Virus record (IMG/VR): IMGVR_UViG_3300045988_175750
Reading direction: 5' to 3' (one strand)
Origin: a virus
DNA length: 35,409 bases
The notes under the pieces are model-generated. The model saw only the letters and a list, made by a program, of their open reading frames with translations. It had not been told where the DNA came from and made no database searches. Below are positions 293 to 29,402 of the stretch, piece after piece; positions within the stretch are counted from its first letter, which is position 1, and the number at the start of each line of letters is the position of its first letter. A program made the position numbers and the translations under genes.

Positions 293-724
293 CTACGGGT
301 TAGCGGCGAGCGCGTCTTCTAGTGATTTCCATGTGCTGCCGCGTTGTTTCATCCAGGTTTCGAGTTCTAGCCATGTGCGGTTTGTGTGTGGCTGTGGTGT
401 GGGTGGTGGGGTTGCGGTTCCGCTGAGGTTGATTGTTTCGCCGGGGTTGATGGTGATTTGTCGGCATTCTGCTTTGACTCGGCGGAGGGCTGAGTCGTAG
501 AGGGCGAACCTCACTTCGTAGGTTGCTGGGGCGAATAGTCTTGTGGGGATGAGGTTTCCGTTTTCGACTGTTCCGGTTGCGGGGGCGCCGGGGTAGGTTT
601 TTCCGTCGGCGGTTGCGGCTTCGGTTGGGGTGAAGCGGATCGTGCCGTGTAGCGGTTCGGGGTTTTCTCCGTCTGTTTTGTTGGAGAGGAATTTCCCTTC
701 GATGGTTCCGATGCTGTTAGTCAT
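293..724 (-). CDS. Hypothetical tail-tip associated protein
   Basis: This 143-aa ORF overlaps the upstream gene by 8 nt (coupling). It lies in the tail-tip block between the minor tail genes and the tailspike. I recognise no motif. Confidence 0.6.
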   Translation of the reverse strand: MTNSIGTIEGKFLSNKTDGENPEPLHGTIRFTPTEAATADGKTYPGAPATGTVENGNLIPTRLFAPATYEVRFALYDSALRRVKAECRQITINPGETINLSGTATPPPTPQPHTNRTWLELETWMKQRGSTWKSLEDALAANP

Positions 725-899
725 GGGTGATTACCTCTGCGACTTCTGCTTTGAATTCTTCTTGCTTCGCTTCTTCGTTCTTCTGGCGGTGTGCTTCGAT
801 GATGCTTAGGTTGAGGATTTCTTCTCGGAGCTCTGCGTTTTCTTGGATGAGTACGCGGCATTTAGTTTCGAGCTGTTCTCGTGTCAGGTGCTCGTTCAT
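717..899 (-). CDS. Small coiled-coil protein (60 aa)
   Basis: ATG at 899 is preceded by AAGGAGA and lies just after the stop (911) of the previous gene. The ORF-track start at 1001 would overlap that gene. The sequence is charged and heptad-like: MNEHLTREQLETKCRVLIQENAELREEILNL... Confidence 0.55.
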   Translation of the reverse strand: MNEHLTREQLETKCRVLIQENAELREEILNLSIIEAHRQKNEEAKQEEFKAEVAEVITHD

Positions 900-910
900 G
901 TGGGGTCTCC

Positions 911-2197
911 TTAGGTGTTTCGGTTTAGCGGGTGGAAGAGTAATTCGACCCAGATGTCGCTTGCAGCGGATGAGTCTAGGTTGTGCAGGAACAGGCTGCA
1001 TGATGAGCTTGTCCTATTGCGGATGTTCGCGGTGACGGCATAGCTTGTGATTGCTTGGGCGGTGATGAACGGGACTTGCCCTTGGTCTGTGAAATTTATT
1101 TTTATTTCTGTCCATCCGCCGCGGGGCGGGAGGTTCTGCGGGCCAACGCTCATATGGAAATATGATTGGGTTTGCGAGAAGCGGCCCTCTAGCCTCATGT
1201 TTGTGAGAACGCGGAGGCTGTCGGAGATATTTACGCCGCCGTTCACATCAATGTATAAGCCTTTGATGTCGTATTCTGGGGCTTCTGCGTTGGATGCTAC
1301 GCCCATGTAGAAGGCGCCCTGGGGGTCCATGCGTATGCGGCCGATAGGGGCGCGCATATCGGCGTCTAGGGGGCGCATTTCAAGGACGGATGCGCGGGAG
1401 CCTGTCACCCCGCGGGCAACGGTTGAGTAGGCTGTCATCCCGGCTTTGTTGCGGGCCGCTGTTGAGAACGTGCCGACGAAGAAATTCTCTTCGCCTGCGG
1501 CGTCAATTTTCACGGTCTGCCGCCCGGTCGCGTCGAATGCGGCTAGGCCGGTGCTGCTGATTTTCATGCCCCGATCAGCGGCCTTGTCTGTCTGAATCCA
1601 TCCCCCGGTGAGAATCTTAGCGGAGAGGTCTTCGACGTTGATTCGTTTGGCTATCAGCTCTGGGGTGACGATGTTCTCTACGACGGTGGCGCGCTGGATG
1701 ATCGCTTCTTCGGTGACAACGAGTTTTTTTGTCTCGGTGCTCATGGCCCGCACGATTTCAGCTGCGAGCTGTTCTGTCACGTTTAGCTGCTTCACGTCCA
1801 GGGTGCCGGGCAGGATTAGGTTCCGCCCGTTGAATAGTGGCTGCGGCGCGTTCTGGATAGCTTTTACTGCCGTGCCCGCGATTTTCTCATCCGTGGTTCG
1901 GGCTTCGACCTGCTGGATACGGTCTCGTGCGTCGCTGAGCGATGTCTCGGCGGCGGTGAGTGTTTCCTTGGCTTTCTCAACAACTTTCACTGCTTCGCCC
2001 ACGCGCTTATCTAGGTCGGCGATTACGTCACCATCCCAGAGGTGGGCTGTTCCGCTGCGGTCGTAGTAGGTTGTTGATTCGCCGGGGCGGGCGACTTTCA
2101 CCCCGTGAGGTGTGGATGCTGGGGTGCGGAGCTGCTGCACGAGCCGCCGCAGCGTGTCCCCGCCGTTCTGGTTCCTCAGGTCTATATAGTTCACCAC
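911..2197 (-). CDS. Minor tail protein / tail fibre-like
   Basis: This 428-aa ORF has a coiled-coil segment (EKAKETLTAAETSLSDARDRIQQVEART) followed by a beta-rich C-terminal part. It sits in the tail-tip block downstream of the tape measure. Confidence 0.7.
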   Translation of the reverse strand: MVNYIDLRNQNGGDTLRRLVQQLRTPASTPHGVKVARPGESTTYYDRSGTAHLWDGDVIADLDKRVGEAVKVVEKAKETLTAAETSLSDARDRIQQVEARTTDEKIAGTAVKAIQNAPQPLFNGRNLILPGTLDVKQLNVTEQLAAEIVRAMSTETKKLVVTEEAIIQRATVVENIVTPELIAKRINVEDLSAKILTGGWIQTDKAADRGMKISSTGLAAFDATGRQTVKIDAAGEENFFVGTFSTAARNKAGMTAYSTVARGVTGSRASVLEMRPLDADMRAPIGRIRMDPQGAFYMGVASNAEAPEYDIKGLYIDVNGGVNISDSLRVLTNMRLEGRFSQTQSYFHMSVGPQNLPPRGGWTEIKINFTDQGQVPFITAQAITSYAVTANIRNRTSSSCSLFLHNLDSSAASDIWVELLFHPLNRNT

Positions 2198-2224
2198 TGC
2201 GACCGCCGCCTTTCTACGCTTGGT

Positions 2225-3328
2225 TTACCATTTTGCTTCTTGGAAATCGAGAGTTATTTTCCCGCTCAAATCCCCACTCATTTTGATGATGCGCATCGCA
2301 CGGGTGCCGTCTGGGATGCTGAGCCACCCGGCGAGGGTTACGTTCGCAGTGTCTCCCACATGAAAAGACCCGAGCGGTGTTTTCGGGCTGGACGCCAGGA
2401 ACGAAAGTGTTACTTGGTCGATCATCTCTTGGCGGGTTTGGAGCGCGCCCTCTGCCTTTTGCCGCAGAACATCGACTGTTGATTGGTCTGAGTCAGACAT
2501 GACCGCCTCAATAAAAGGGGCGTTATGCTCATAGACGCTGCGGAGGTTTTCAGCGAACGCGATAGCTGTTCCCTCGCCCTCGCCGGAGCCAGTGCACCAG
2601 ACGCGGTTCACAAGGTCTTTCCCTGTTGAAGTTATCGAGACTTCCTCGATTTGCGCGAGCGCGGGGGTTGTGTCGAAGTCTGGGACCCAGGCTTGGGGGA
2701 TGAACGGGTATGCTTCGCCTCCGGCGCAGAATTCCCATTCAATGAGGGTATGTTCTTTGTTGGCCCACTTGGGGCGGAACATCAGATCGGGGCCGTTGAT
2801 AACTTCGGTTATTTCTTTCCAGCGCTTGCCGATGAGGTTGTTGCTGACGTTCCATTTTTCATAGGTGCGTTCCCTTGCCGCGGTTTCTTGGTCTGGGGTG
2901 GCGCGGGTGATGGGGAGGTGCCCGCCGGGGCGGTCCATGCCGTGCAGGCAGAGTTGCCAGGCGATTTCTCCGAGGGTGGTGTTGCGGTATTCGAGGTGCT
3001 GCCAGATGGTGCGGTTCTCGAATATTCCGCGGATGCCTTTTATTTTGATTTCTAGTGTGTGTAGGGTTTCTTTGCCCCAGTCTGCGATGTAGCCTGCGAT
3101 GATGGGGTATTCGATGTTGTCGGCCCCGGTGTGGGTGAGTAGGGCGCCGCCTGTGAGCGGCGCCCACCATTCGGGGTTGAGCTGTTTGAGGGCTTTTTTC
3201 TGGACAGTGAAGGATAGCTCTTCGACGCTGTTTAGTGTGATGGTGAATGATCCGCCGGATTCTGGGTTGATGTAGGCGCCTACTTCCCCGGTTACTGGGT
3301 GTATCCAGTAGAGTTTGAACCCGCTCAT
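2225..3328 (-). CDS. Minor tail protein (tail-tip, Tal-like by position)
   Basis: This 367-aa ORF is the third gene after the tape measure and is tightly packed with its neighbours. The assignment rests on synteny only. Confidence 0.6.
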   Translation of the reverse strand: MSGFKLYWIHPVTGEVGAYINPESGGSFTITLNSVEELSFTVQKKALKQLNPEWWAPLTGGALLTHTGADNIEYPIIAGYIADWGKETLHTLEIKIKGIRGIFENRTIWQHLEYRNTTLGEIAWQLCLHGMDRPGGHLPITRATPDQETAARERTYEKWNVSNNLIGKRWKEITEVINGPDLMFRPKWANKEHTLIEWEFCAGGEAYPFIPQAWVPDFDTTPALAQIEEVSITSTGKDLVNRVWCTGSGEGEGTAIAFAENLRSVYEHNAPFIEAVMSDSDQSTVDVLRQKAEGALQTRQEMIDQVTLSFLASSPKTPLGSFHVGDTANVTLAGWLSIPDGTRAMRIIKMSGDLSGKITLDFQEAKW

Positions 3329-3352
3329 TGTGCGCTTCTTTCTGCCTGGTTG

Positions 3353-4219
3353 TTATTCGATTGCGACGCCCTGATCCATTACGACGATTTGGTCTCCGGC
3401 GTATCCCCACTCTCCGCCGCCCTGGACTTGCCAGCCCAAAGTGTTTACCTTGCGTTGTACGGTGTAGTGGATGCGGTGGCGGCCTGCTTTGAAGGTGAGG
3501 GAGCGGCTGATGTCTTTTGTTTCGGCGATGAAACCGTATTCGACTTCGCGGCGGAACTTGAACTCGTTATCCACATAAACTTTGTAGACTATGCTTCCCC
3601 TATCGTTGGGGCCGTATGCGCCGCCGCCGGGGCGGCGGGCCATCACGGTTGAGGATAGCTTGATGTCTACGTTCCGATCTGTGGGGAGGTAGAACTCTCC
3701 GACGCCACGTGTAAATACTCCATCCTCGCGTACTACATCATCAGCAAAGTAGTTGTGAAATAGACGGCCGAGAGAGCCGCCGACGGGGCGAGAGTAAACA
3801 ACATTCCCTGCCTCGGGTGCTGCGGAAGTTGCTGCTACCCCGGGCCGAATTTCCCGCTTGGAGAGCATGACTGCGCCTTGAGGGAGAGTTTCCCCGATTT
3901 TTACCACGGCAGAGACGTTCCCGTCCACCGCCTGCGTATTCTGCTTCACATAGATGATGTCTGTTCGGGAGCCTTGGCGGGGCGCTGGCTGCGTGTTGAG
4001 GGTCTGTTCCATCACGGGGACCTTCACGGCGCGGCCGGGCGCCAGGTGCACTACAACAGCTCCGCTCTTCACCTTGTAGGTCATTGTTGATGTGCCTTCG
4101 ACCTCGCAGCCGCTAATAACCCCTGCGGTCGGGAACTCTGCGGCGTTTATGACCTGGATGTCTTCGGGGGTTGTGCCCAGCCCGTCGGGTGTGTTTGGGA
4201 TTCCGAACCCGGTTGCCAA
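3353..4219 (-). CDS. Minor tail protein
   Basis: This 288-aa ORF is the second gene after the tape measure. It has normal protein composition and is assigned by synteny. Confidence 0.6.
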   Translation of the reverse strand: MATGFGIPNTPDGLGTTPEDIQVINAAEFPTAGVISGCEVEGTSTMTYKVKSGAVVVHLAPGRAVKVPVMEQTLNTQPAPRQGSRTDIIYVKQNTQAVDGNVSAVVKIGETLPQGAVMLSKREIRPGVAATSAAPEAGNVVYSRPVGGSLGRLFHNYFADDVVREDGVFTRGVGEFYLPTDRNVDIKLSSTVMARRPGGGAYGPNDRGSIVYKVYVDNEFKFRREVEYGFIAETKDISRSLTFKAGRHRIHYTVQRKVNTLGWQVQGGGEWGYAGDQIVVMDQGVAIE

Positions 4220-4229
4220 TCTTTTCTCC

Positions 4230-5087
4230 TTAGATGTAGGTGTCTGAAAAATTCACGTCTACCCACCCGCTGGCGGGGGCGAGCGCCTCGACTGCGATTT
4301 CGAACCCGCTGTTTGGTGGGGCGGTGTGCCACGCGCGGCGGGTGAGTAGGTGTGTTTGGTCTTGGCTGCTGAGGTAGAGGGCTCCGGTTGCGCAGTCAAT
4401 GGTGACTGGGGCGGTGGCGTTCACGGCGTGCGGGAATTCTAGGACGCGGCCGGATGATGTGAGCCGGAATCCTGACGCCCAGTCGCCGCGCACTACGTAG
4501 ACCGGGTGCGCGGCGGCGTTGCCGTTGTGCTGGATGATCGCCGCCTGCGGTGGGGTGTCTCCGTAGGAGAGAACCCCTTTGGGGGTTACCCCGAATAGGG
4601 GGTAACGCAGCCCTGTTCCTGCCCCTGCGGGGAATAGCTGAACTATTTTCGGGGTGGCGTATAGGAATGGGTCTGGGGCGACGAATGGGGCTTCGAACGC
4701 GACAGCGCTATCACCCATCAGTTCGGTTTTGATAGCGCCGTCAAGCCGCACCTGAGCGGTTAGTTCTAGGCCTTCTCTTGCGACGGTTAGCTCGCCGAGT
4801 GAGCCGTCCCAGGTGAGGCCGGAGACGAAGCGGCTGGCGACTTCTCGGGCTTCCATCCCTGGCATGAGTAGGGCGCCTTTGAGGGTGATAGTTCGGGCGG
4901 ATCGGCGGGCGGGCGCGGATAGGAACCCGTGCCCTATTTTTCGTTGTGAGTCATCGGACTCTACGCCGACGCCGCCGAACCACCCATCGACGGCTGTTAC
5001 CCAGAACTCGCCTTCTTCGGGCGTGCTCTCGAAGGTGGATAGAACCAAGTTCCCATGCGGGCCTCGTATCGAAACCTCATAGCGCAT
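4230..5087 (-). CDS. Distal tail protein (Dit)-like minor tail protein
   Basis: This 285-aa ORF starts 1 nt after the tape-measure stop, which is the canonical Dit position in siphoviruses. Confidence 0.6.
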   Translation of the reverse strand: MRYEVSIRGPHGNLVLSTFESTPEEGEFWVTAVDGWFGGVGVESDDSQRKIGHGFLSAPARRSARTITLKGALLMPGMEAREVASRFVSGLTWDGSLGELTVAREGLELTAQVRLDGAIKTELMGDSAVAFEAPFVAPDPFLYATPKIVQLFPAGAGTGLRYPLFGVTPKGVLSYGDTPPQAAIIQHNGNAAAHPVYVVRGDWASGFRLTSSGRVLEFPHAVNATAPVTIDCATGALYLSSQDQTHLLTRRAWHTAPPNSGFEIAVEALAPASGWVDVNFSDTYI

Positions 5088-5088
5088 T

Positions 5089-8000
5089 TTAGACTAGTAT
5101 TCCTTCCATCTCGTGGGCGAATGCCTCGCCGAAGCGGCGGCCGAACCTGTCGGGGTCCATCTTGTCGCTGCCTGTGACTTGCACCGTGAACCCGCTGCGC
5201 TGCCCGTATGCGGCGGGCCGCGCCGTAGAGGCTGAGCCTCGGAGAGCGGCGGGCGGCGCCCCGTATGCGCTGGATGACAGGTCTACCCTGGAAGAGAGCA
5301 GGCCCGGCGCGATGGCGTCTTCTACACCGGCGAACCCTTCGCGGGCGGCGTCTACAGCCTTATCGGTCATGTCTGTTATCGCGTCGGCTACGGCATCACT
5401 GTTTTTGCTGATACCTTCCGCCAGGCCTAGAGGAATCCATTTACCCACCTCATCGCGCATCACGCGAGACGGGGAGTGAATTCCGAGCGGGCCTTTCATC
5501 CAGCCGGGCAGGCCGTCAGCGATACTTTTCACTGCCTGGTAGACAGCGCCAGCGGCGTTCTTGATACCGTTCACAAGGCCGTTGATAATATCAGTGCCCA
5601 TTTGGACTAGCTTCCCGGGGAGGGAGTTCAGCTCGTTTACGATGTCCACACCCATTTTCTGGAAGAACCCAATGACGTTATGGATTCCGTCAGATACGCC
5701 CTTTTTGATGCCTTCCCAGATGGTAGAGACGATTTTTCCTATGCCATCCCAAGCAGCGTTCCACACGTTTTTGATAATGTCGATTGCTGATGCGATGACC
5801 TGCCAAACAATTTTGATTGCACCCTCAATGACTGAAACGATTAAGTCCCAGATTCCCTTGAGAATACCCAAGATAGCGTTCCAAGCGCCTTCCCAGTCTC
5901 CCTTGAGGATAGAGGTAAAGAGCTTTATGACGTTGATAATAATATCTATGGCGGCCTTGATGATTGGCACAATCGCGTTCACCACAGTTATTACGATGTC
6001 CAGCACATTTTTGATAATGGGCACGAGAATATCAATGATGGTGGTAATCAGTGGGATAAGCGCCTCTACCAGTGAAAGGATCACTGGGATGAGCGAAGAA
6101 ATGATGAAAACCACCAGCGGGATAATCGCAGCGAGGATCGCCGCAAACACCGATATTACTGTAGTCAGCACGGGCATTAGCGCGGTAATGAGCTGTATAG
6201 CCAGCTGTGCAACAGCCGACTGAATTTCTATAAACATGCCCACGATAGGGGCAAGAACCGGGAGAAGCTGTAAGAAAATTCCAGCTATCTGCGGGAAAAG
6301 CCCTAAAATTGTTCCGACAAGCTCCATGATCGCGGGCAACAGCTGATCCACAATCACCGGAATGAGCGGCTGGAACGCCTGTACCAGCTGCACCCCGAAA
6401 TCAACGACCATCGGGATAAGTGGCGTCAGATGATCGCCTATCTGCATAAACGCCGCGCCGAACCGCTCACCAAAAGAGATGAACGTGGGGCCTAGCGTCT
6501 GGAACATATTCCCGACCGTTTCAAGAGCTGCCATGACTTTAGGCACCACAGCATCGGCAACCTTAGCGAGCGCACCGATCAGGCCGCCGCCTGTTTCGGC
6601 GTTTCCTTTGAGTATCCGCTCGAAGACTGGCACCATCTGCTGGGCGAGTTTTCCGAAGACATCTGCGGCAGTCTTCCCGAATTCCTGAATTTTTGGGACA
6701 ACTTGGGCAACGAGCGGCTGGAATGCCTCTACGATTGTGCGGCCGAGCTCCCCTAGTATTGGGACAATGGTGTCTATGACCGGCTGGATAGCCTTCATCA
6801 GGTTATCCCATGCCTGCCTGCCTACTTCTGTCTGCGTGAAGAAGTACACGAGACCGGCTGCTACGAGGGCGAGCGCGGTAACGATTGCGCCAAGGGGGTT
6901 AGCTGATAGAGCGCCCCATACTGCTTTGATTCCGCTTACGACGCCGCCCATTGCTGCTTTGTACACGGCTGCTGCTGCGGCGGCGCCTTTGAGTGCGAGC
7001 TCTTGGGCTTCGAATGCTTTCGCGCCGAGCTCTGCGGCTTTCCCTAGTTCTGCGACATCTTGGGCTGTGCCAGCGCCTTCTTTGACAAGTTTGAATCCCT
7101 CGCCGACTGCCTTTATCGCGTCTACTGTTCCGGTTACTGCGTCGATGCCTGTTTTGTAAACATCGAGAGCTCCCTTGCCTAGATCTATAGCTGTGGTGAC
7201 TCCTTCATAGGCGAGCTTGGCTCCGCCGAGTACGCCGATGAGGATTCCTACGGCTTCTTGGTGCTGCCCGATGAATTCTGAAAGCGTGTATAGGGACTCG
7301 CTTACTTTTTCAAGGATTCCGTGAACTGTGGCGAGTGCGCCTTCCAGGCCTCCGCCTGCTGCGTCTCCGAGGCCCTGGAAATGCGGGATGATTGACATTA
7401 CGGCCCCAGCGAGCTCGCCTGCGACGCGCACAATGTTGGTGAATATCCCGACGATGCTTCCTGCTATGGGTGGGAGCCAGGTGCCGAGGATACCGCCGAG
7501 GTCTTTTGCGACGGATACGATGGTGCCGCCGTGCCCTTGGAATTTTCCTGCGAGCCCTTGGATCGCTTCGCCTAGAACACTGAACATAGCGCCCCATAGG
7601 GAGCTATCTCCCCAGGCGCCCATTGCTTCACTGAACCCGGTGGCAAATGACTTCGCGGCGTTCTTCATAACGTCGAATGCGCTTTGGATTACTGGGGCTG
7701 CTTGCTGAGCGAGCTGCCCCGCTTTTTGCACGAGCCAATCTACCGCGCCGCCAAGCACCTTGCCTATGATTTTTCCGAATTCTTCGACTGGCTTCATCCA
7801 TTCCTGAAATTTCAGGAAGAATTTTGTGAGCACTGGGTATACCCCGCCGAGGATGTTTGCACCGAAGCGGCCGAGTGCTGCTTTTGCGTTCTCGAATGCG
7901 CCGGGCAGGGTATTACCCATTTCTTTAGCCACAGTACCCGAGGCCTTAGTCATGGCCTTCTCGAACTGTTCAAAGTTGATTTTGCCGTCAGAGGCGAGCT

Positions 8001-8619
8001 TGAAGACGCCTTCGGTTGTGGTGCCGAGCTGATCCGCGAGCGCCTGGTAAATGGGGATGCCTCGGTCTGCGACCTGCTGAAGCACGTCGTTTTGGGCTTT
8101 GCCCAAGGACGCGACCTTGTTATAGATTGCGCCCATTTCCTCCATTGATGAGCCGCTGGATGCGGCGGAGTTCGCAACGGAGGTTAGGACTTTCTCTAGC
8201 CTTTCGCCGGGGGCGATGCCAGCGGCTACGGCACCGGCTGCGGTGGTTGCTGCGGCGTCGAGCCCGAATGCGGTTCCTTTCACTGCTGCGGAGGCGTTGG
8301 ACATGATTGTCTTCACGGCATCCGCATCATGCCCGAGGCCGCGCAGCTTTGCTTGGGCAACGTCGATAGCTTTCAGGCGGGAGAAGCCTTTACTGAAGGC
8401 GGTGCCGAAGATTCCGGCGACGGGGATTGCGGCGACGCCTGCGGCGACTACTTTTCCGATGGTGCCGCCGAAGAGGCGGCCGAAGCCGGAGGATGCTTTC
8501 GCCCCGGCTTCGGCGCCTGCCCGGTCGCCTGCGGCGGCCATGTCGGTAATGATGGACGCGCCCACGCCCTTAGTGCTTGCGATGACGGAGACGTATGCTT
8601 TAGCGAGTTCGTATGCCAT
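5089..8619 (-). CDS. Tail tape measure protein
   Basis: At 1176 aa it is the longest ORF. It is Ala/Gly-rich with a long hydrophobic I/V/L-rich core and a GIHSPSRVM motif, and it lies directly after the G/GT chaperone pair. Confidence 0.92.
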   Translation of the reverse strand: MAYELAKAYVSVIASTKGVGASIITDMAAAGDRAGAEAGAKASSGFGRLFGGTIGKVVAAGVAAIPVAGIFGTAFSKGFSRLKAIDVAQAKLRGLGHDADAVKTIMSNASAAVKGTAFGLDAAATTAAGAVAAGIAPGERLEKVLTSVANSAASSGSSMEEMGAIYNKVASLGKAQNDVLQQVADRGIPIYQALADQLGTTTEGVFKLASDGKINFEQFEKAMTKASGTVAKEMGNTLPGAFENAKAALGRFGANILGGVYPVLTKFFLKFQEWMKPVEEFGKIIGKVLGGAVDWLVQKAGQLAQQAAPVIQSAFDVMKNAAKSFATGFSEAMGAWGDSSLWGAMFSVLGEAIQGLAGKFQGHGGTIVSVAKDLGGILGTWLPPIAGSIVGIFTNIVRVAGELAGAVMSIIPHFQGLGDAAGGGLEGALATVHGILEKVSESLYTLSEFIGQHQEAVGILIGVLGGAKLAYEGVTTAIDLGKGALDVYKTGIDAVTGTVDAIKAVGEGFKLVKEGAGTAQDVAELGKAAELGAKAFEAQELALKGAAAAAAVYKAAMGGVVSGIKAVWGALSANPLGAIVTALALVAAGLVYFFTQTEVGRQAWDNLMKAIQPVIDTIVPILGELGRTIVEAFQPLVAQVVPKIQEFGKTAADVFGKLAQQMVPVFERILKGNAETGGGLIGALAKVADAVVPKVMAALETVGNMFQTLGPTFISFGERFGAAFMQIGDHLTPLIPMVVDFGVQLVQAFQPLIPVIVDQLLPAIMELVGTILGLFPQIAGIFLQLLPVLAPIVGMFIEIQSAVAQLAIQLITALMPVLTTVISVFAAILAAIIPLVVFIISSLIPVILSLVEALIPLITTIIDILVPIIKNVLDIVITVVNAIVPIIKAAIDIIINVIKLFTSILKGDWEGAWNAILGILKGIWDLIVSVIEGAIKIVWQVIASAIDIIKNVWNAAWDGIGKIVSTIWEGIKKGVSDGIHNVIGFFQKMGVDIVNELNSLPGKLVQMGTDIINGLVNGIKNAAGAVYQAVKSIADGLPGWMKGPLGIHSPSRVMRDEVGKWIPLGLAEGISKNSDAVADAITDMTDKAVDAAREGFAGVEDAIAPGLLSSRVDLSSSAYGAPPAALRGSASTARPAAYGQRSGFTVQVTGSDKMDPDRFGRRFGEAFAHEMEGILV

Positions 8620-11593: not shown

Positions 11594-12505
11594 TTACTTG
11601 AGGGTGTATTTCACGAAGCTATCCTTGTCGGCGAGCAGCCAGCCGAATTCCGCTTCGGCGCGCACAGCAACAAGGTTGTTCTCGAACAGAGACACAAGCT
11701 TGCCGCCAATCGTTACAGCGGCCTCGGTTGAGACATCGAAGGTGATACCGCCGACGGTGCCCCAAATGCACTTGCTCCAATTGCCGCCGAAGCCGACAAC
11801 GGAGCCGGTGGTGGTTGCGGGCGCGATGCCTTCTGCGAAGACTGCGGGGCGGCCTAGCAGGGTCCCAGCTACAACCGACTCAGCGGTCCCAGTGGTGGGG
11901 GAGGCGGTGAAGATGGGGCGACCGTTGTTATCGACGGAGCTGTTCAGCATCGGTTCCACTACCGTATCCAGGGCGAACCCGGTAAGACGCTTACGGTCTT
12001 TCGCTAGGACGTTCAGCCCTTCGTTGATGTCGGCGAACAGCCCGCCCTTAGCTGCGGTTGAGGTGCCCAGGGTGACGGTCTTAGCCGTTGCGGCGAGGTT
12101 CTGATCTGAACCGAACGGGGAGTCGGTGCCGTGCAGTGCTGCGGCGTCGAATGCCTTTGCGAAGGCCTCGGCAATATCCTGCTTGAGGATTTCCATAAAC
12201 CCGCCGGGGTTGGAGCGCACCACCTCAGCTGAGACCGGGACGATTGCCGCCAGCTTCTTCGGTGTCATGGTCTTAATGCCCAGGCCGCCGTTAGTGGTAG
12301 GCTTCTGCCCACCCTCAGATACCCAGCCTGCGGTAGGCTTCGAAGTCACAATCGGCACATCAACGCCGTTTGCGGAGAGGGGGACCTGACGTGCGAGAGT
12401 TTGCGCGATAGAGACCTTACGGACCTCTTCGAAATATGCTTCCGCCAGCTCGGGGCGGATAAAGCCGGAAAAATCTCCGGTCTGTACGGCCTTGGTAACA
12501 GCCAT
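11594..12505 (-). CDS. Major capsid protein (HK97 fold type)
   Basis: This 303-aa ORF follows the scaffold gene. Its N-terminal region (FIRPELAEAYFEEVRKVSIAQTLARQVPLSANGVDVPI) is typical of the HK97 capsid family. Confidence 0.9.
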   Translation of the reverse strand: MAVTKAVQTGDFSGFIRPELAEAYFEEVRKVSIAQTLARQVPLSANGVDVPIVTSKPTAGWVSEGGQKPTTNGGLGIKTMTPKKLAAIVPVSAEVVRSNPGGFMEILKQDIAEAFAKAFDAAALHGTDSPFGSDQNLAATAKTVTLGTSTAAKGGLFADINEGLNVLAKDRKRLTGFALDTVVEPMLNSSVDNNGRPIFTASPTTGTAESVVAGTLLGRPAVFAEGIAPATTTGSVVGFGGNWSKCIWGTVGGITFDVSTEAAVTIGGKLVSLFENNLVAVRAEAEFGWLLADKDSFVKYTLK

Positions 12506-12537: not shown

Positions 12538-13053
12538 TTATTTGGCGCCCACGGCAGCTTTCAGTTTGTCCAGCAGCGGGTTACCGTTCAGCGCTAAATC
12601 AGGTTCGCCTTCGCCTGGGACAACCACGCGCTGCGGGCCGGGCACAGTGGCAATCAGCTCTTTGAGCTGTGCCGCGTGCTCTTCTAGTTCCTTGCGGGTG
12701 CTCCCACGCAGTGCGGCGGCGGGAACGCCTGCCTCAGCGGCAACCTCTTCCCGCCAGTCTCGAACCTGATTCGCTGCCTTCAAATCAGCGAGCGCAGCTT
12801 CCGCTTTTTCAGCGCGTTCTATAGCGTCATTAACAGCTGCGGCTTTCTCTTGCAGTTCCGCGTAGTCAGCGAATTTCGCGCGCTCACGTTCTAGACGCTT
12901 GGCGATCACTTGGTCTAGCTGCCGCTGTGAGGTTATTTCACGGAATGGGCCGGTTTCCTCGCTCTGCGGCTCTTGCGCGGGGGCCGTAGGGTGGGTTTCT
13001 TCTGCGGCGGGGGTTTCCGTGGTTACCTGCTCGCTGGTTTCTGCGTCTGCCAT
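12538..13053 (-). CDS. Head scaffolding protein
   Basis: This 171-aa ORF is acidic, Ala/Glu-rich and helical, and lies immediately upstream of the capsid gene. Confidence 0.8.
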   Translation of the reverse strand: MADAETSEQVTTETPAAEETHPTAPAQEPQSEETGPFREITSQRQLDQVIAKRLERERAKFADYAELQEKAAAVNDAIERAEKAEAALADLKAANQVRDWREEVAAEAGVPAAALRGSTRKELEEHAAQLKELIATVPGPQRVVVPGEGEPDLALNGNPLLDKLKAAVGAK

Positions 13054-13073
13054 TTGGGGCTCCTTAAATGCGC

Positions 13074-13100
13074 CAGCCCCGCGCTGTGGTGGCGTGGGGC
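13074..13100 (+). other. Degenerate copy of the conserved GC-rich hairpin element
   Basis: The sequence agccccgcgc-tgtggtg-gcgtggggct is related to the elements at 13170 and 32400. Confidence 0.5.
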
Positions 13101-13169
13101 TGTGGGTTATTATGTTGTGCCGCCTCTTTCCCCGGGCGGTCGGGTAAAACTTTTTGTGTGGGTATGGGT

Positions 13170-13205
13170 AAGCCCCGCGCGCCGGGTGGCGGGCGGGGCT
13201 TCCTC
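13170..13205 (+). terminator. Conserved GC-rich hairpin element, copy A
   Basis: The sequence aagccccgcgcgccgggtggcgggcggggctt forms a 13-bp stem with one mismatch. It is near-identical to 32400..32436. Confidence 0.5.
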
Positions 13206-13226
13206 TTGTGCGGGGTGAGTGGTGTC

Positions 13227-13535
13227 TTATGCTGCGGCGAGCGCTGGGGCGGTGGCGTCTATGATGTCGCCTTCGCTGTTCTCGTAGGTGGCGGCCGCAC
13301 CGGATGCTTTGACGGCTTCCCAGGTTTCAGCTGCTAGGTCTTCACTGGTGTTTGACCGGATGTGCAGTGTGGTGCCTGGGTCTGGCTCATTGGAGTAGAC
13401 AAGGACGGCTCCGCGGTTGGGGAAGGTGTAGGCTGCATCAGCTGCCGTGTCTGCGGCGGCTGCGCCTTTCATGGCTTCCACGATTTTTAGCGCTTCTGGT
13501 GTCTCTGCCTCAATGGTGATGTATGCCTTGTACAT
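13227..13535 (-). CDS. Small acidic protein, candidate immunity partner of the MuF-fused nuclease
   Basis: This 102-aa ORF starts 2 nt after the stop of the MuF-nuclease gene. It is rich in E, D and A and has no structural-gene counterpart in the canonical head module. Confidence 0.6.
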   Translation of the reverse strand: MYKAYITIEAETPEALKIVEAMKGAAAADTAADAAYTFPNRGAVLVYSNEPDPGTTLHIRSNTSEDLAAETWEAVKASGAAATYENSEGDIIDATAPALAAA

Positions 13536-13537
13536 GG

Positions 13538-14746
13538 CTAGTACCCTCTCGTGATAGCTTCGGCGTTGGGAAGTAATACTATCACTTCGTCTATATGGTG
13601 TCTGCCTTCCCTTACATCTTCATTGTAGCGCTTTATGGTGGCGTCTACTTTGGCTGTGATTTCTTCCCGGCTGAGTGGGCTGTCCGATGCGTCTAGGACG
13701 ATCTTTCCCGCTTGGGTGCGGGCTTTACGGATTTGCCCTTGGATGCCGCTAAGGCTTGCCCCTTTCAGCTTTTTAAATTCCCACCGTTCCCCTTCTAAGG
13801 TGGCGTCGGGGGTGGCGTCTGTCTCGGCGGGCGGTATGAACACCGTGCTCATCCCGAGCTTTGCCAGCTTCTCCGCCGTGTCTAGCTCATGCTGGTACAC
13901 ATGCTTTGCTGCTGAGCGGTCCACAGCTCCTTGCTTGGCTGGCTCGGCGAGCGCGTGCCAGCTTTGCGGGGCTGTACGGGAGTGTTCTTTGGGCTCGCCG
14001 TGGGCCGGGTAGATGCCAGGGTATATTTTCTCCATCTGAGAGACTATATCCCAATCTGTGAGCCCTATTTCCCCGCCCGCTTCTTTGGCTGCCGCTTGGC
14101 GTGCGGTTTGGTACCGGCGATAGTCTGCGGCAGGGTTGTACCCCTTGATTTTTGGGGTCTTTTTACCCCAGGCGGGCACGATCATACAGTCGCAATGATC
14201 GTGAAACTTATGGTCGGCGCCAGCGGCTTTTTCTGATGCGTAGTCAAAACCCCGTGAGGCGAGCATGCGGCAGAAAGCGCAGGTTTCGCTTCCTGAGGGG
14301 ACGCGGGCGAATCGTGGGCGGGCAGGGTCTTTTTCTGCTGCGGCAGTGATGGTGTCACGCCCCGCTGATTTTACGATTCGATCCAGCATCCCGGCTAACG
14401 CCGTACTCACTTGCTCAGTGCCGTTTTCTTCCCAGAGAGGCCCCGCCGCGGCGCGAACTTTTGCCTCTACTGCTTCATGAGGGATGGCTGCGGGCAGCTG
14501 AACCCGGTAATCTTCTTTCCCGGTTTCTAGCGCCCGCATCGCCTCGTACCAATCTGCTGCGGCTGCTGCTGCGGCACCACCGTATCGGCCTGCTATAGCC
14601 TGCGTGAGGGTAATCAGCTCATCCCGCACCTGGGCGGGGTCGGCGGTAGCGGGGGTTGCCCTGAGTGCCCTGATAACAAGCTGTTGCGCTTCCTCTGAGA
14701 GGCCGTTCATGGTGGCAAGAAGCGCGTCGATGTCTTCACGGCGCAT
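13538..14746 (-). CDS. MuF-like minor head protein fused to a C-terminal PD-(D/E)xK (CdiA-CT / Tox-REase-like) nuclease domain
   Basis: This 402-aa ORF lies directly after the portal gene. It carries the MuF-type Zn motif TCAFCRMLASRGFDY...HKFHDHCDCMIVP. The C-terminal ~130 aa read ELDTAEKLAKLGMSTVFIPP...TPDATLEGERWEFKKL...QAGKIVLDAS (a D...ExK pattern). Confidence 0.75.
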   Translation of the reverse strand: MRREDIDALLATMNGLSEEAQQLVIRALRATPATADPAQVRDELITLTQAIAGRYGGAAAAAAADWYEAMRALETGKEDYRVQLPAAIPHEAVEAKVRAAAGPLWEENGTEQVSTALAGMLDRIVKSAGRDTITAAAEKDPARPRFARVPSGSETCAFCRMLASRGFDYASEKAAGADHKFHDHCDCMIVPAWGKKTPKIKGYNPAADYRRYQTARQAAAKEAGGEIGLTDWDIVSQMEKIYPGIYPAHGEPKEHSRTAPQSWHALAEPAKQGAVDRSAAKHVYQHELDTAEKLAKLGMSTVFIPPAETDATPDATLEGERWEFKKLKGASLSGIQGQIRKARTQAGKIVLDASDSPLSREEITAKVDATIKRYNEDVREGRHHIDEVIVLLPNAEAITRGY

Positions 14747-14767: not shown

Positions 14768-16261
14768 TTACGGCTTGCTATCATCGGGCGCCTGCGCGGT
14801 AGCGTCGCTAGGCTCTTCCTTCGGTGCTGGCGGCCCCTCTTGAGGCGCTGGCGGGTTTTCTGCTTGCCTGCTTGCTAGTACAGCGTCAAGCATTTTCGAC
14901 CCCTCAGCGCGGCGTTTATCCGCGATGAGCCGTTCTACGGCCGCCGCGTCATACCCCAGCTTCTCTAGGATAACCGGGGATTCGGCAAGCCACGGCATGA
15001 TCTGAACCTGCTTGAGCACGGCGTCTGCTGCTGCCGCGTCTGAGGTCTGGAACGTCGGGGCGAACCATGCGGAGACCTTCGACAGCCCTTCGAGGGAAGA
15101 CACATCAGATGTCCCCTCGCGCAGCAGCACGGAAATAATTGCGAGCTGCCGCAAAGACGCCTTATAGCCCCGAATAACCCGGTTGGCTCCAAGACGCAGC
15201 GGGTCGCGCTGAGACTGAATCGCTGAATCTGAGGAAGGGTTTTCCGATGGGAAGCCCAGCTCATCAATCGGGATTTGCGACTCAGCCGCTAGGAGCGCCG
15301 CCCACTGGCGGAGCTGATCTGTGTGCGGCTGCATGCTCAGCTGCGAGAATTGGCCGACCTGAGGGAGCTCCCCGTCTTCATCACGGCTTACCGTCAGCAT
15401 CTTAGAAATCAGTGCAGACCATTTCGACGCCGAGAGGGTTTCCTCATCAACGCCGAGCATGTACCGCTGCGGAGAGGCGTAGAACTCTGCGCTGATTTCT
15501 GAGCGAACAATCGTTCGGATCGCTGAGTCTGTTAGGGACATGACGGCCCTGCTAATCCGTGCACGCCCGAACGGGCGGCGCAGGTCTGCCCCCACAGTGA
15601 CGGGCACAATAAGCGGGCGGCCTGTCGGGTTGGGGATAATCTCTGCTTCATATTGCCCGTCACGGCGGATTTTTATAATCGCTGTCTTATCGGGCAGGTA
15701 GAGGGCAACCTCGCGGGGAGTGACACCGCCGAGGCCATCCTCATCTGCTTTCGTGATAGACAGGCCCGCCTTGAGAGTATGCGTGCGTTTGTTCCAAATC
15801 CCTGTTGCCCAGTGCGCGGTTTTAGGGAGCCAAAGGATTTCCGGCTCGCCCTTCGACGTGTCGCCCTGGGTGATTGTGATAAAGGCGCAGGAATGTGTGA
15901 GCGCGGATGAATTGGTCTGAGCGAACAGCTCCGTAAAATTGTTGTCTTCTACTATGCTGTTCAGCCCGAACGGGTCTTCCTCATCGCCTGGTGAAACAAA
16001 CTTCTCGAAGTTGATTCGGTCGGCGAGAACATCTACCACCTTCGCGGGCCAACCGAGTACAGAGTTGATTTTCTTGAGCTGCGGCGGGATGGAGATACCT
16101 AAATCAACCAGCCCCATGTGCTGATCGTAGTATTTCTGGCGCTCTATGTTCCTGCCCCGTTTCTTATCCAGCCGGGCTAACATCTTTTTGACAAGCGCCA
16201 TCTCATCGGTGGAAAGATGCATCTGCGGGGCCGAGCTGATAAACGGCATAACATCGGTCAT
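14768..16261 (-). CDS. Portal protein
   Basis: This 497-aa ORF overlaps the TerL stop by 4 nt, has an acidic C-terminal tail, and sits in the canonical position. Confidence 0.9.
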   Translation of the reverse strand: MTDVMPFISSAPQMHLSTDEMALVKKMLARLDKKRGRNIERQKYYDQHMGLVDLGISIPPQLKKINSVLGWPAKVVDVLADRINFEKFVSPGDEEDPFGLNSIVEDNNFTELFAQTNSSALTHSCAFITITQGDTSKGEPEILWLPKTAHWATGIWNKRTHTLKAGLSITKADEDGLGGVTPREVALYLPDKTAIIKIRRDGQYEAEIIPNPTGRPLIVPVTVGADLRRPFGRARISRAVMSLTDSAIRTIVRSEISAEFYASPQRYMLGVDEETLSASKWSALISKMLTVSRDEDGELPQVGQFSQLSMQPHTDQLRQWAALLAAESQIPIDELGFPSENPSSDSAIQSQRDPLRLGANRVIRGYKASLRQLAIISVLLREGTSDVSSLEGLSKVSAWFAPTFQTSDAAAADAVLKQVQIMPWLAESPVILEKLGYDAAAVERLIADKRRAEGSKMLDAVLASRQAENPPAPQEGPPAPKEEPSDATAQAPDDSKP

Positions 16262-17727
16262 ACGCTAATCCTCTGTTTTCTCTTTCCAGGGTTACGGCGC
16301 GTTGTCTTCGCACCCCAAAATGCTAGTGTTGCTGCTTCGAACAGGGAGACAGACCCGCCTTCTGGGGCCTGCCACCCGAAGCCGCCGCGAGCGCCTATCT
16401 TTCGTCGCGTTGCGGAAAGGACTTGCATGTTTAGCTCATCCTGCGCCGAGTGTGAGAGCGTGCCCGCGATGACGGCTTGGTCGAGCATGGCGTGGGCGGC
16501 GATCACTTGCTCAAGTGATGGCTGCCAGATGAGGTTTTTCTGTCTCACGCCGCGCTCTTGCAGGGCGTTCACCAGGTAGCCAACGCCCGCTTTGCCGTCT
16601 ATCACGAACTGGGCGGCGGTGTCTTTGCGGTCTACTAGGTAATCAATAAGCCATGAGGTGCCTGCGCTCAGAGGCTCACTGCGGATACCTTCAATGAAGA
16701 TAGGGCCGTCGCTGTCGGGGCGGCAGGCCGCAGATAGGGCGACTTCCAGCCCGTCGGGTGAGAACCTGACGCCGTAAACGGTTCGCCCAGCAGCGGGCGG
16801 CTCAGCTTGGAGCTTATTCCACGCCTCCGGCTGGATAGCGCGAGCGGCGAGCGCCTTCTCATCCCAGATTCCCAAACCCTCGCGTTTGAAGCTCTCATCG
16901 TTGGCGAGCAGCTTCCGCATGCGCTGGAATGCGGTTGTGCTGACTCGCTCGGGATAGGACGGGTTGGCTTTCATCCATTGCTTCTTATCGTCCAGGTTCG
17001 CGTTCGGGTCGGCGGAGCATTCGATAAAGAGGGTGTCCTTGTCGCCGTTGAGCGCTTCTTCGCGGCGTTGGGTGAAAACTTCGCCGGGGTCGATGGGGCG
17101 GGGTGGGGTGCCCATCATGATTACAAGGCCGTTTGGTGCCGCGTTTGTTGCGGGCACCATGTCATCCATTGCTTTCTCGGTGAGAATCTGCGCCTCATCT
17201 AGCACGATTACATCCACTTCGGGGAAGCCTCGGCCGAACCCATTTTCTCGTGCGCCGAAAAGGATTCGTGAGCCGTTTTTGAATTCGATTGCTTCCTGCC
17301 CGGCGCCGCGGCGAATGTGGGCGATAAATGGTTTCACGTCGGGCCGGTTCACAATGCCCTGCATCGCTGCGAATGTCTCGTTATGGGTGCGGGAGCGGTG
17401 AGCGCTCCATAGCACTAGGGTATTTGGCTGAGCGTTGCAGAGAGCAAGCATGAACCCAGCTACCATGTGGGTTTTCCCGACCTGGCGGGGGATGCTGATT
17501 ACAGCGCCGCCGACGCCGCAGGCATAAATGCCGTCTTCCCGCTTGGCGAAGATCAGCTTGCCAATCCCTACCTGCCAGGCGTCCATGCCGTACCGCATCC
17601 TGCCTAGCTGCTGGGCTATGCGCTGCCAGCCGGTAGTGACTATCCCCTCTGGGATAACCACGTGGCGGGCGACCTCATGCAGTCGCCGGGTCAAACGGGA
17701 TGTCGCCGACTTTGGCATCGAAGGCAA
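16258..17727 (-). CDS. terL: Terminase large subunit
   Basis: This 489-aa ORF has Walker A PRQVGKT and Walker B VDVIVLDEAQ. The start may instead be the ATG at 17718. Confidence 0.92.
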   Translation of the reverse strand: MPSMPKSATSRLTRRLHEVARHVVIPEGIVTTGWQRIAQQLGRMRYGMDAWQVGIGKLIFAKREDGIYACGVGGAVISIPRQVGKTHMVAGFMLALCNAQPNTLVLWSAHRSRTHNETFAAMQGIVNRPDVKPFIAHIRRGAGQEAIEFKNGSRILFGARENGFGRGFPEVDVIVLDEAQILTEKAMDDMVPATNAAPNGLVIMMGTPPRPIDPGEVFTQRREEALNGDKDTLFIECSADPNANLDDKKQWMKANPSYPERVSTTAFQRMRKLLANDESFKREGLGIWDEKALAARAIQPEAWNKLQAEPPAAGRTVYGVRFSPDGLEVALSAACRPDSDGPIFIEGIRSEPLSAGTSWLIDYLVDRKDTAAQFVIDGKAGVGYLVNALQERGVRQKNLIWQPSLEQVIAAHAMLDQAVIAGTLSHSAQDELNMQVLSATRRKIGARGGFGWQAPEGGSVSLFEAATLAFWGAKTTRRNPGKRKQRISV

Positions 17728-28199: not shown

Positions 28200-28205
28200 T
28201 TGAGC

Positions 28206-29288
28206 ATGGCTTCCATTAGAAAAAACCAGCGCAAGGATGGAACTACGGTCTGGGCCGTCCTTTGGCGAGAAAATGGCAAACAGACCTCCCGAACCTTTCC
28301 CACTGAGTACGACGCGCGGATGCTCAAAGATTTTCTGGACGCAAACGGCAATAGCTTTGAGCTCGCGGCGCAAGCTGCTGCGCGGCTGCAATCAACAAAG
28401 CCGACGGTAGACACCATCATCCGGCGGCATATAGATTCTCTCACTTCGATCACAAACGGCACGAGGCTAAAATACGGGCGCATCTACGAGCAGCACATCA
28501 TGGCTCCGCTCGGCTCAATCCCAATCGACGCGCTCAGCCGAACAGACATCACCAGATGGTTCAACCGGCTAGGACGCGCCGAAAAGACCAAACGAAACAT
28601 CCACAGCCTACTCTCATCCGCCCTCGCGGCGGCCGTCAAAGAAGGCATCATCGACTCAAACCCAGCCGTCGGAATCCGCGGAGAGCGCGAACTATCCAGC
28701 GTGCAGGCCGTCTTTCTCAGCCGCGAACAATTCCTACTGATAACCTCCCACATCCGAGAAGAATTTAGCCTATTTGTCCGTTTCCTCGAAGCCACAGGGC
28801 TGCGATTCGGAGAGGCAACCGCGCTGCGCTGGCAAGACATCGACCTCCGCAGTGAGCGCGGGGTAGTGCACGTAAGCCGGGCGGTGCGGCGCGGAGAACG
28901 CGGCGTGACTATCGGCGTGCCAAAAACCCGGTCATCCGTGCGCTCTGTCTCCCTGCCGCTATGGCTCGGCGATGAGCTGCGGGAAGCGCGGGAAGGACAC
29001 GGGCCGGGAGAACTCGTTTTCCAATCGCCAGGCGGGCTAGTGCTCACAAACGGCTACTTCCACCGCCGCGCCTGGATACCCCTCATGAACCAGATTGGCG
29101 CTGAGCTTGGCTGCCGCCCCCGCGTCCATGACCTGCGGCACACGCACGCATCACGGCTCATCGAGGCCGGGGTTCCGCTTCCGGTGATTCAGCGGCGGCT
29201 CGGGCATGAATCTATCACTACCACGGTCGGCACCTATGGACACCTCTCTATCGACGCCGATTCAAAGGCCGCGTCCGTACTGGACTAG
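28206..29288 (+). CDS. int: Tyrosine integrase
   Basis: 360 aa from ATG 28206 (MASIRKNQRKDGTTVWAV...). The C-terminal catalytic pattern is HDLRHTHASRLIEAGVPLPVIQRRLGHESITTTVGTYGHL. Confidence 0.93.
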   Translation: MASIRKNQRKDGTTVWAVLWRENGKQTSRTFPTEYDARMLKDFLDANGNSFELAAQAAARLQSTKPTVDTIIRRHIDSLTSITNGTRLKYGRIYEQHIMAPLGSIPIDALSRTDITRWFNRLGRAEKTKRNIHSLLSSALAAAVKEGIIDSNPAVGIRGERELSSVQAVFLSREQFLLITSHIREEFSLFVRFLEATGLRFGEATALRWQDIDLRSERGVVHVSRAVRRGERGVTIGVPKTRSSVRSVSLPLWLGDELREAREGHGPGELVFQSPGGLVLTNGYFHRRAWIPLMNQIGAELGCRPRVHDLRHTHASRLIEAGVPLPVIQRRLGHESITTTVGTYGHLSIDADSKAASVLD

Positions 29289-29350: not shown

Positions 29351-29402
29351 TATATGTCAGGTGGTAAACAGGCCATCGACAAAGCAACCAGAAAAAGGAA
29401 AC

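Follow-up and report, generated by a model that had tools for sequence, protein, structure and literature searches.

MuF polymorphic toxins are head proteins of temperate phages that carry a toxin domain at the C-terminus of a MuF-superfamily domain, and many prophages of human-associated bacteria are predicted to encode them. A survey published in 2017 joined four families, MuF1 to MuF4, by comparison of hidden Markov models (HMM–HMM comparison), and found an open reading frame (ORF) of fewer than 150 amino acids (aa) after 89% of MuF toxin genes, compared with 25% of short MuF genes (191 and 952 genes, respectively; PMC5576092). The domain cd13442, from the CdiA C-terminal (CT) region of Burkholderia pseudomallei 1026b (Bp1026b), was named there among the recurrent MuF toxin domains, and MuF4 toxins were reported in Actinobacteria, with a MuF4 + EndoU protein of Bifidobacterium as the example (PMC5576092). 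Cognate immunity has been demonstrated experimentally for the Apk2 MuF toxins (PMC12226406). Here we analysed IMG/VR record IMGVR_UViG_3300045988_175750, a viral stretch of 35,409 nucleotides (nt; hereafter the window), in which a gene for a 402-aa head protein is followed by a 102-aa acidic ORF. We consider it likely that this locus is a MuF-type polymorphic toxin–immunity cassette in the head module of a temperate Rothia-type siphophage. We know of no nuclease-type MuF toxin for which packaging, injection or neutralisation by the product of its neighbour has been demonstrated.

The locus is a VG15/MuF4 head protein gene that gained, in one insertion, a linker and a Bp1026b-like nuclease domain, together with an abutting acidic gene and a hairpin. 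An initial annotation, made from the letters of the window, had pointed to the coordinates of the two ORFs, a Cys/His motif, the peptide string HELDTA...IVLD, a 2-nt spacer, the acidity of the small ORF and two hairpins, and all of these are present. The parts of the locus are as follows.

13538-14746, minus strand: VG15 + CdiA_C fusion gene (402 aa), directly after the portal gene; stop codon at 13538-13540.
13994..14746, minus strand: VG15/MuF4 domain, aa 1-251 of the 402-aa protein.
13898..13993, minus strand: linker or pre-toxin segment, aa 252-283, starting where homology with relatives lacking the CT domain (CT-less relatives) breaks off.
13541..13897, minus strand: CdiA_C (Bp1026b-like) PD-(D/E)XK nuclease toxin domain, aa 284-402.
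13886-13888 (E287), 13805-13807 (D314), 13778-13780 (E323), 13772-13774 (K325) and 13712-13714 (Q345), minus strand: putative catalytic residues.
13227-13535, minus strand: 102-aa acidic ORF, after the 402-aa gene.
13054-13226: intergenic gap of 173 nt between the 102-aa ORF and the scaffold gene.
13167..13203, minus strand: hairpin 1 (GGAAGCCCCGC...GCGGGGCTTACC), 24 nt past the stop of the 102-aa ORF.
13074..13102, minus strand: hairpin 2, just upstream of the AAGGAG ribosome-binding site of the scaffold gene.

The insertion is delimited by comparison with the four nearest relatives of the protein (P0002-P0005, all from uncultured Rothia), which are 70-74% identical to it and only 259-272 aa long. 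In BLASTP, the 402-aa protein is 74% identical to the CT-less P0002 over aa 1-251, after which homology ends, leaving a C-terminal extension of 151 aa. On the contigs of these relatives, the MuF gene is followed by a gap of 72-79 nt with one hairpin (72 nt in the contig L001) and then by a scaffold gene 57% identical to that of the window. The closest relatives thus share homologues of the portal, MuF, scaffold and capsid genes with the window, but neither the CT domain nor the 102-aa ORF is present in them, from which we conclude that the two were acquired together as one cassette of ~0.85 kb. The inserted DNA (~13150-13993) runs from the linker through the CT domain and the 102-aa ORF to hairpin 1. 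Among close relatives, the small ORF occurs only where the CT domain occurs, and a short VG15 gene likewise adjoins the scaffold gene, with no small ORF, in Rothia phage Spartoi, Arthrobacter phage MrSmee and D29. An origin of the cassette in a foreign G+C background was excluded, as the cassette agrees with the rest of the phage in both G+C content and codon usage.

The 173-nt gap as a whole is unusually stable when folded (z = -4.95) and holds two G+C-rich hairpins. Hairpin 1 (-29.5 kcal/mol, z = -5.4) is terminator-like in form with no U-tract; it has no counterpart in the 72-nt gap of the CT-less L001, and it probably marks the 3' boundary of the insertion. In L001 a hairpin stands at the position equivalent to hairpin 2, before TTAAGGAG; since the hairpin of CT-less relatives occupies this same place, hairpin 2 is ancestral to the MuF-scaffold junction and lies outside the cassette. 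An Rfam search found no known RNA family anywhere in the window, the two hairpins included. Separately, the gap is 100% identical between the window and a variant contig, L010, whereas the flanking genes differ at ~3% of positions (37 codon differences in the 402-aa gene), which suggests either that the RNA structures are under constraint or that the segment was recently exchanged by recombination.

The C-terminal domain contains the string HELDTA...TPDATLEGERWEFKK...QAGKIVLDAS, and residues 312-391 match CdiA_C (PF18451) at 47.7 bits against a curated cut-off of 26.6 (E 1.8e-12), so the motif resemblance on which the initial annotation relied was not due to chance. That annotation had spoken of a CdiA-CT or Tox-REase toxin domain; the CdiA-CT family and the PD-(D/E)XK clan hold, and the family is PF18451/cd13442 rather than Tox-REase. 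PF18451, a member of the PD-(D/E)XK clan, was built on CdiA-CT(II), the tRNase of B. pseudomallei 1026b (PMC9990079; PMC5576092). A profile of 38 relatives of the domain matched a single solved structure in the PDB, 4g6v_A (E 6.7e-12). An AlphaFold (AF2) model of the domain reached a mean predicted local distance difference test score (pLDDT) of 94.5, and in a Foldseek search of the PDB this model had 4g6v_A as its sole match below 1e-3 (E 1.8e-6, template-modelling (TM) score 0.71-0.72). Among viral models (BFVD), it matched MalagasyRose gp9, a protein of phage TPA4, and metagenomic proteins named 'CDI toxin-like' and 'minor capsid'.

The catalytic D/E/K residues that the initial annotation expected are present and conserved: across the 38 CT sequences D314 and K325 show no variation, conservation is 90% or more for E287 and Q345, and position 323 is E or D. 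E287, D314 and E323 align with E, D and D of the 4G6V toxin chain. The linker (aa 252-283) contains the G-x-VDRS motif conserved in alignments of this CT subfamily. Between the window and L010, the 402-aa gene shows 32 synonymous and 5 non-synonymous differences. From the profile matches and the predicted structure together, we regard the assignment of fold and family (CdiA_C, PD-(D/E)XK) as secure. As for what the nuclease may cut, the likelihood of RNA is no lower than that of DNA, because Bp1026b CdiA-CT, the one homologue to have been characterised, is a tRNase.

A word-index search with the CT domain alone returned no matches, and an exhaustive search of representatives with residues 270-402 did find relatives, 166 in all, with the domain at the extreme C-terminus in nearly all of them. 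A MuF-superfamily model was matched by 44 of 60 long CT carriers (32 VG15, 8 Phage_min_cap2 and 4 Phage_Mu_F). One CT subfamily is thus fused variously to VG15, Phage_Mu_F and Phage_min_cap2 proteins, which provides a functional argument that VG15 also belongs to the MuF superfamily.

At the N-terminus, residues 3-215 match VG15 in a Pfam search (PF25310, E 9.2e-64), in agreement with the proposal that the gene next to the portal begins with a MuF-type region. The Cys/His motif (C156, C159, H182, C185 and C187, at 14186-14281; peptide TCAFCRML...HKFHDHCDCMIVP) is invariant or near-invariant in 21 relatives. The gp15 proteins of mycobacteriophages L5/D29 belong to VG15, and D29 gp15 matches both PF25310 and our own profile of 21 VG15 sequences (99.4% probability). 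In their supplementary table, Jamet et al. 2017 (PMC5576092) score D29 as MuF4, and the N-terminal domain in the window is therefore MuF4. Our own hhalign comparison of VG15 with an alignment of three MuF1 sequences was shallow and weak (E 0.013, only the Cys/His motif aligned), so that the link from MuF4 to MuF1/2 rests on the published HMM–HMM comparison. A VG15 profile search found no relative of solved structure.

VG15 homologues were found by tblastn in 1,523 phage records, nearly all of them actinophages, under annotations that vary between 'MuF-like minor capsid protein' and 'capsid maturation protease'. Their C-termini vary as well: some have none, and others carry EndoU (P0017, P0064), PF21814 (P0035) or other CT domains. 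By family membership, many of the actinophage genes named 'capsid maturation protease' encode MuF4 proteins, some with a CdiA-type nuclease domain, and some of the neighbours of these toxin genes are probable immunity genes that are mis-annotated or unannotated. For the 402-aa protein itself we rejected the function 'head maturation protease', which is the PHROG label, as no protease family or motif was detected. A C-terminus of ~150 aa with no Pfam match recurs in the VG15 proteins P0044, P0047, P0049 and P0050 (…DIRGQNGQRCAVYFRGGDIAVVNLDKKVRVSLFKY…) and may be an undescribed toxin domain.

Only 2 nt lie between the stop of the first gene of the cassette and the start of the second (TAG CC ATG), which has a Shine-Dalgarno-like GAGAGGG 8 nt upstream of its start and is positioned for translational coupling with the toxin gene. 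Its product has an isoelectric point (pI) of 4.21 and a net charge of -10. Codon adaptation is 0.77 in frame, compared with 0.41-0.66 in the other frames, and the ORF shows 5 synonymous and 3 non-synonymous differences from L010; given this codon usage and the 5:3 ratio, it behaves as a real gene as far as its sequence can tell. We consider its product a good candidate for the cognate immunity protein, judging from where the ORF lies, its acidity, its arrival along with the CT domain and the analogous loci described below. The arrangement proposed in the initial annotation, that of the published MuF polymorphic toxins, is present: a portal-adjacent MuF protein, a CT toxin domain and a small ORF next. 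The phage is also temperate.

Comparable pairs occur elsewhere. In Tsukamurella phage TPA4 and Mycobacterium phage MalagasyRose, the stop of a VG15 + CdiA_C gene is overlapped by an ORF of 107 aa (pI 4.24) and 103 aa (pI 4.05), respectively, and similar G+C-rich hairpins follow the small ORF. At loci in actinobacterial genomes that carry the same CT subfamily, an ORF of 98-121 aa with a pI of 4.3-5.3 overlaps or abuts the CT stop in seven of eight cases. Five of these seven have stand-alone short CT genes, and L016 is the only one of the eight loci with even weak VG15 homology upstream; the presence of an acidic ORF beside stand-alone CT genes indicates that the CT domain and the acidic protein form an autonomous two-gene module. 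The stand-alone CT ORFs are 138-186 aa long (L014, L017, L018, L019 and L020; match from 2501) and come from Propionibacteriaceae, Mycobacterium, Mycolicibacter and Aldersonia; an acidic ORF of ~100-120 aa overlaps or abuts each of them, and these pairs look like free toxin-antitoxin-like or orphan toxin-immunity modules. The acidic proteins of the analogous loci form one family among themselves, and the 102-aa protein resembles them in size, pI, position and predicted beta-alpha-beta topology.

The public records of the two cultured phages are likely misannotated at these genes, as read from their sequences. The VG15 + CdiA_C genes of both phages bear the label 'capsid maturation protease'; in TPA4 the gene pair Orf4 and Orf5 is at 2189-3651 of L012. 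In MalagasyRose, gp10 (L013, 3250-3561; 103 aa, pI 4.05) is annotated 'scaffolding protein' and looks like the immunity-type ORF, and gp11 (L013, 3627-4319; 230 aa, rich in Ala, Pro and Asp) is annotated 'major capsid protein' and looks scaffold-like.

Several results weigh against the identification of the 102-aa protein as an immunity protein, or against a toxin-immunity pair in general. A homologue search with the 102-aa protein returned only itself and near-identical copies. Although it was the best of 296 window ORFs against a profile of the analogous acidic ORFs, it scored only 8 bits (E 0.067), and hhalign gave a probability of 1% over 10 columns for a relationship with that family. Its single-sequence model was poor (pLDDT 58.5; beta-alpha-beta-beta-beta-alpha-beta-beta), and a Foldseek search with this low-confidence model yielded only non-significant, generic ferredoxin-like matches, none of them CdiI; because of the low confidence of the model, the fold comparison to CdiI is weak. 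A scan for a promoter that could express the ORF in lysogens, limited to the sigma-70 consensus, found no promoter-like site. Across the small sample of loci compared, a downstream small ORF was present at 7 of 10 CT-bearing and 0 of 4 CT-less loci, a difference that is only suggestive (two-sided Fisher p = 0.07). Finally, three VG15 + CdiA_C loci of metagenomic phages have no abutting small ORF and instead carry tRNA-Trp(cca), with or without tRNA-Leu(cag), between the toxin and scaffold genes.

L004, 4427-4500: tRNA gene(s) at the toxin-scaffold junction.
L005, 5450-5609 (equal to L006, 3168-3327): tRNA genes at the toxin-scaffold junction.
L009, 4010-4171: tRNA genes at the toxin-scaffold junction.

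The proximity of these tRNA genes to the toxin could be coincidental, or it could be meaningful, with the tRNAs compensating for the activity of the nuclease, given that the toxin family was founded on a tRNase. Pfam, PHROG, NCBIfam and PADLOC gave no family match for the 102-aa protein, and phmmer against all PDB chains found no relevant match and no similarity to CdiI.

A toxin-immunity cassette in the head module could work as follows. In late expression, the 102-aa protein would be made by coupled translation, and it would bind and block the nuclease, so that the producing cell stays undamaged until assembly is complete. The MuF domain would bring the fusion into the procapsid via the portal in a few copies, like SPP1 gp7, and at the next infection the fusion protein would exit the capsid with the DNA. 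Virion loading and injection of the fusion are extrapolated from SPP1 gp7 and the MuF-toxin hypothesis (PMC5576092). In the new cell, the nuclease would cut host RNA, by homology most likely tRNA, with DNA as a possible target. The slowed or arrested cell could then bias the lysis-lysogeny decision, have its defences blunted, or, where it is a non-lysogen competitor, simply be harmed.

We judge it rather unlikely that the virion-delivered nuclease is instead an infection effector, serving host shut-off or counter-defence (for example, by removing particular tRNAs or host nucleic acid at an early stage of infection) rather than an interbacterial weapon, with the 102-aa protein acting as an assembly-time inhibitor only and conferring no immunity on lysogens. 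This explanation would fit the candidate immunity gene, which lies in the late head operon and for which no separate promoter-like site was found, although the scan omits actinobacterial promoter types. The tRNA-Trp and tRNA-Leu genes that sister VG15 + CdiA_C loci carry where the small ORF would be also fit a compensated, tRNA-directed activity; however, actinophages often carry tRNA genes, and chance may account for the adjacency. The role of MuF toxins was left open by Jamet et al. (PMC5576092), and the success of close relatives that lack the cassette speaks against an essential function in infection. A bolder form of the idea, to which we give little credence, is that a capsid-delivered, tRNA-directed nuclease acts on the newly entered cell and is offset interchangeably by a protein inhibitor gene (window, TPA4 and MalagasyRose) or by tRNA-Trp/tRNA-Leu genes at the same spot (L004, L005 and L009). 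If so, MuF toxins would be tied to the biology of phage tRNA genes, and to host takeover rather than bacterial warfare.

The small ORF might also have nothing to do with immunity, and be a head-assembly accessory (scaffold-like or a decoration protein) or spurious, the nuclease being harmless for other reasons, such as remaining inactive until packaged or processed. The 'scaffolding protein' label of the MalagasyRose equivalent, the lack of homologues or family matches for the 102-aa ORF and the existence of some CT-bearing loci with no such ORF would all agree with this. We nevertheless find it very improbable: the ORF is absent from the closest relatives despite their homologous portal, MuF, scaffold and capsid genes; analogous acidic ORFs accompany stand-alone CT genes outside any VG15 context; its codon usage and ratio of synonymous to non-synonymous differences favour a real gene; and the window has a separate scaffold gene (phrog_233). 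That the CT domain is a decayed, non-catalytic remnant on what is merely a longer MuF or 'capsid maturation protease' head protein is extremely improbable, since the 'head maturation protease' label of the matching PHROG families and the 'capsid maturation protease' annotation of cultured homologues stand against an intact, conserved set of PD-(D/E)XK signature residues, a very confident domain model, the 32:5 ratio of synonymous to non-synonymous differences and the absence of any detected protease family.

The toxin-immunity cassette sits in a window of ~35.4 kb that looks like a complete temperate siphophage genome. The terminase and portal genes share 73% DNA identity with those of Rothia phage Spartoi, and the phage is temperate, encoding a tyrosine integrase (28200-29288, plus strand; phrog_1, E 1.1e-67). 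The remaining genes of the head module are these.

16258-17727, minus strand: large terminase, TerL.
14768-16261, minus strand: portal (phrog_104, E 5.5e-112).
12538-13053, minus strand: scaffold (phrog_233).
11594-12505, minus strand: major capsid protein.

The tail genes leave one end of the window and resume at the other (32910-35195 and 293-8619, minus strand), with a tail-spike-like 761-aa ORF at the right end and a tape-measure-sized ORF of 1176 aa at 5089-8619. Public contigs with the same protein reach at most 35,402 bp. The window probably represents an entire phage genome in circularly permuted form. Directly downstream of the integrase, on the strand opposite to most of the phage genes, lies a 430-aa ORF (29361-30653, plus strand) for which a PHROG search gave no match; it is a candidate for a cargo gene expressed in lysogeny (a moron or defence gene).

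Our analysis supports the initial annotation of the locus, which was essentially correct. Rothia phages from human-associated samples that have the same head module with or without one ~0.85-kb cassette constitute a clean natural experiment, and this presence/absence system is tractable for studying toxicity, immunity, virion loading and the effect on fitness in an oral commensal. The locus also points to mis-annotated toxin-immunity pairs in actinophages.

Compared with known systems, the locus is closest in layout to the MuF polymorphic toxins (Jamet et al. 2017, PMC5576092), with which it shares a gene right after the portal, an N-terminal domain of the MuF superfamily, a C-terminal extension of more than 100 aa with a polymorphic-toxin domain, an ORF of fewer than 150 aa next to it and a temperate phage as carrier. 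It differs in its host clade, which is actinobacterial (Rothia-like), whereas the class was reported to be strongly enriched in Firmicutes. The streptococcal prophage MuF-CdiA_C proteins (for example, SpyM3_1433 of S. pyogenes prophage 315.6 and the 'minor head protein' of S. equi phage P9) likewise carry this CT family on a portal-adjacent MuF head protein, with small ORFs between the MuF gene and the scaffold gene; their N-terminus, however, is Phage_Mu_F or Phage_min_cap2 and not VG15, their CT domain is ~30% identical to that of the window, and their hosts are Firmicutes.

The CdiA-CT(II)/CdiI(II) pair of B. pseudomallei 1026b (PDB 4G6V), which acts in contact-dependent growth inhibition, shares with the window the Pfam family, the fold, the aligned acidic residues and a small inhibitor gene directly downstream (cognate in Bp1026b, candidate in the window). 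Delivery is by a type V secretion filament in the former, compared with the proposed delivery by phage capsid in the latter; the two toxin domains are ~18% identical, and the 102-aa ORF bears no similarity to CdiI. The Bp1026b toxin has Tyr where the window family has the invariant lysine of the canonical E-x-K, K325; according to Morse et al. in 2012, it reportedly uses a lysine from the following helix instead.

Among cultured phages, the best parallels are Orf4/Orf5 of TPA4 and gp9/gp10 of MalagasyRose, in which VG15 is joined to a CdiA_C domain 39-43% identical to that of the window and matching its model in BFVD with TM scores of 0.84-0.86. Each is followed by a small ORF (103-107 aa, pI 4.05-4.24) overlapping the toxin stop, and then by G+C-rich hairpins. 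In contrast to the reading given here, the annotations of these genes read 'capsid maturation protease (and MuF-like fusion protein)' and 'hypothetical' or 'scaffolding protein', not toxin and immunity, and their small ORFs have no significant sequence similarity to the 102-aa protein. The layout of VG15, CdiA_C and an acidic ORF is thus already in GenBank, in cultured phages annotated otherwise, and the locus in the window adds a clear, but not new, member to the class of MuF polymorphic toxins described in 2017.

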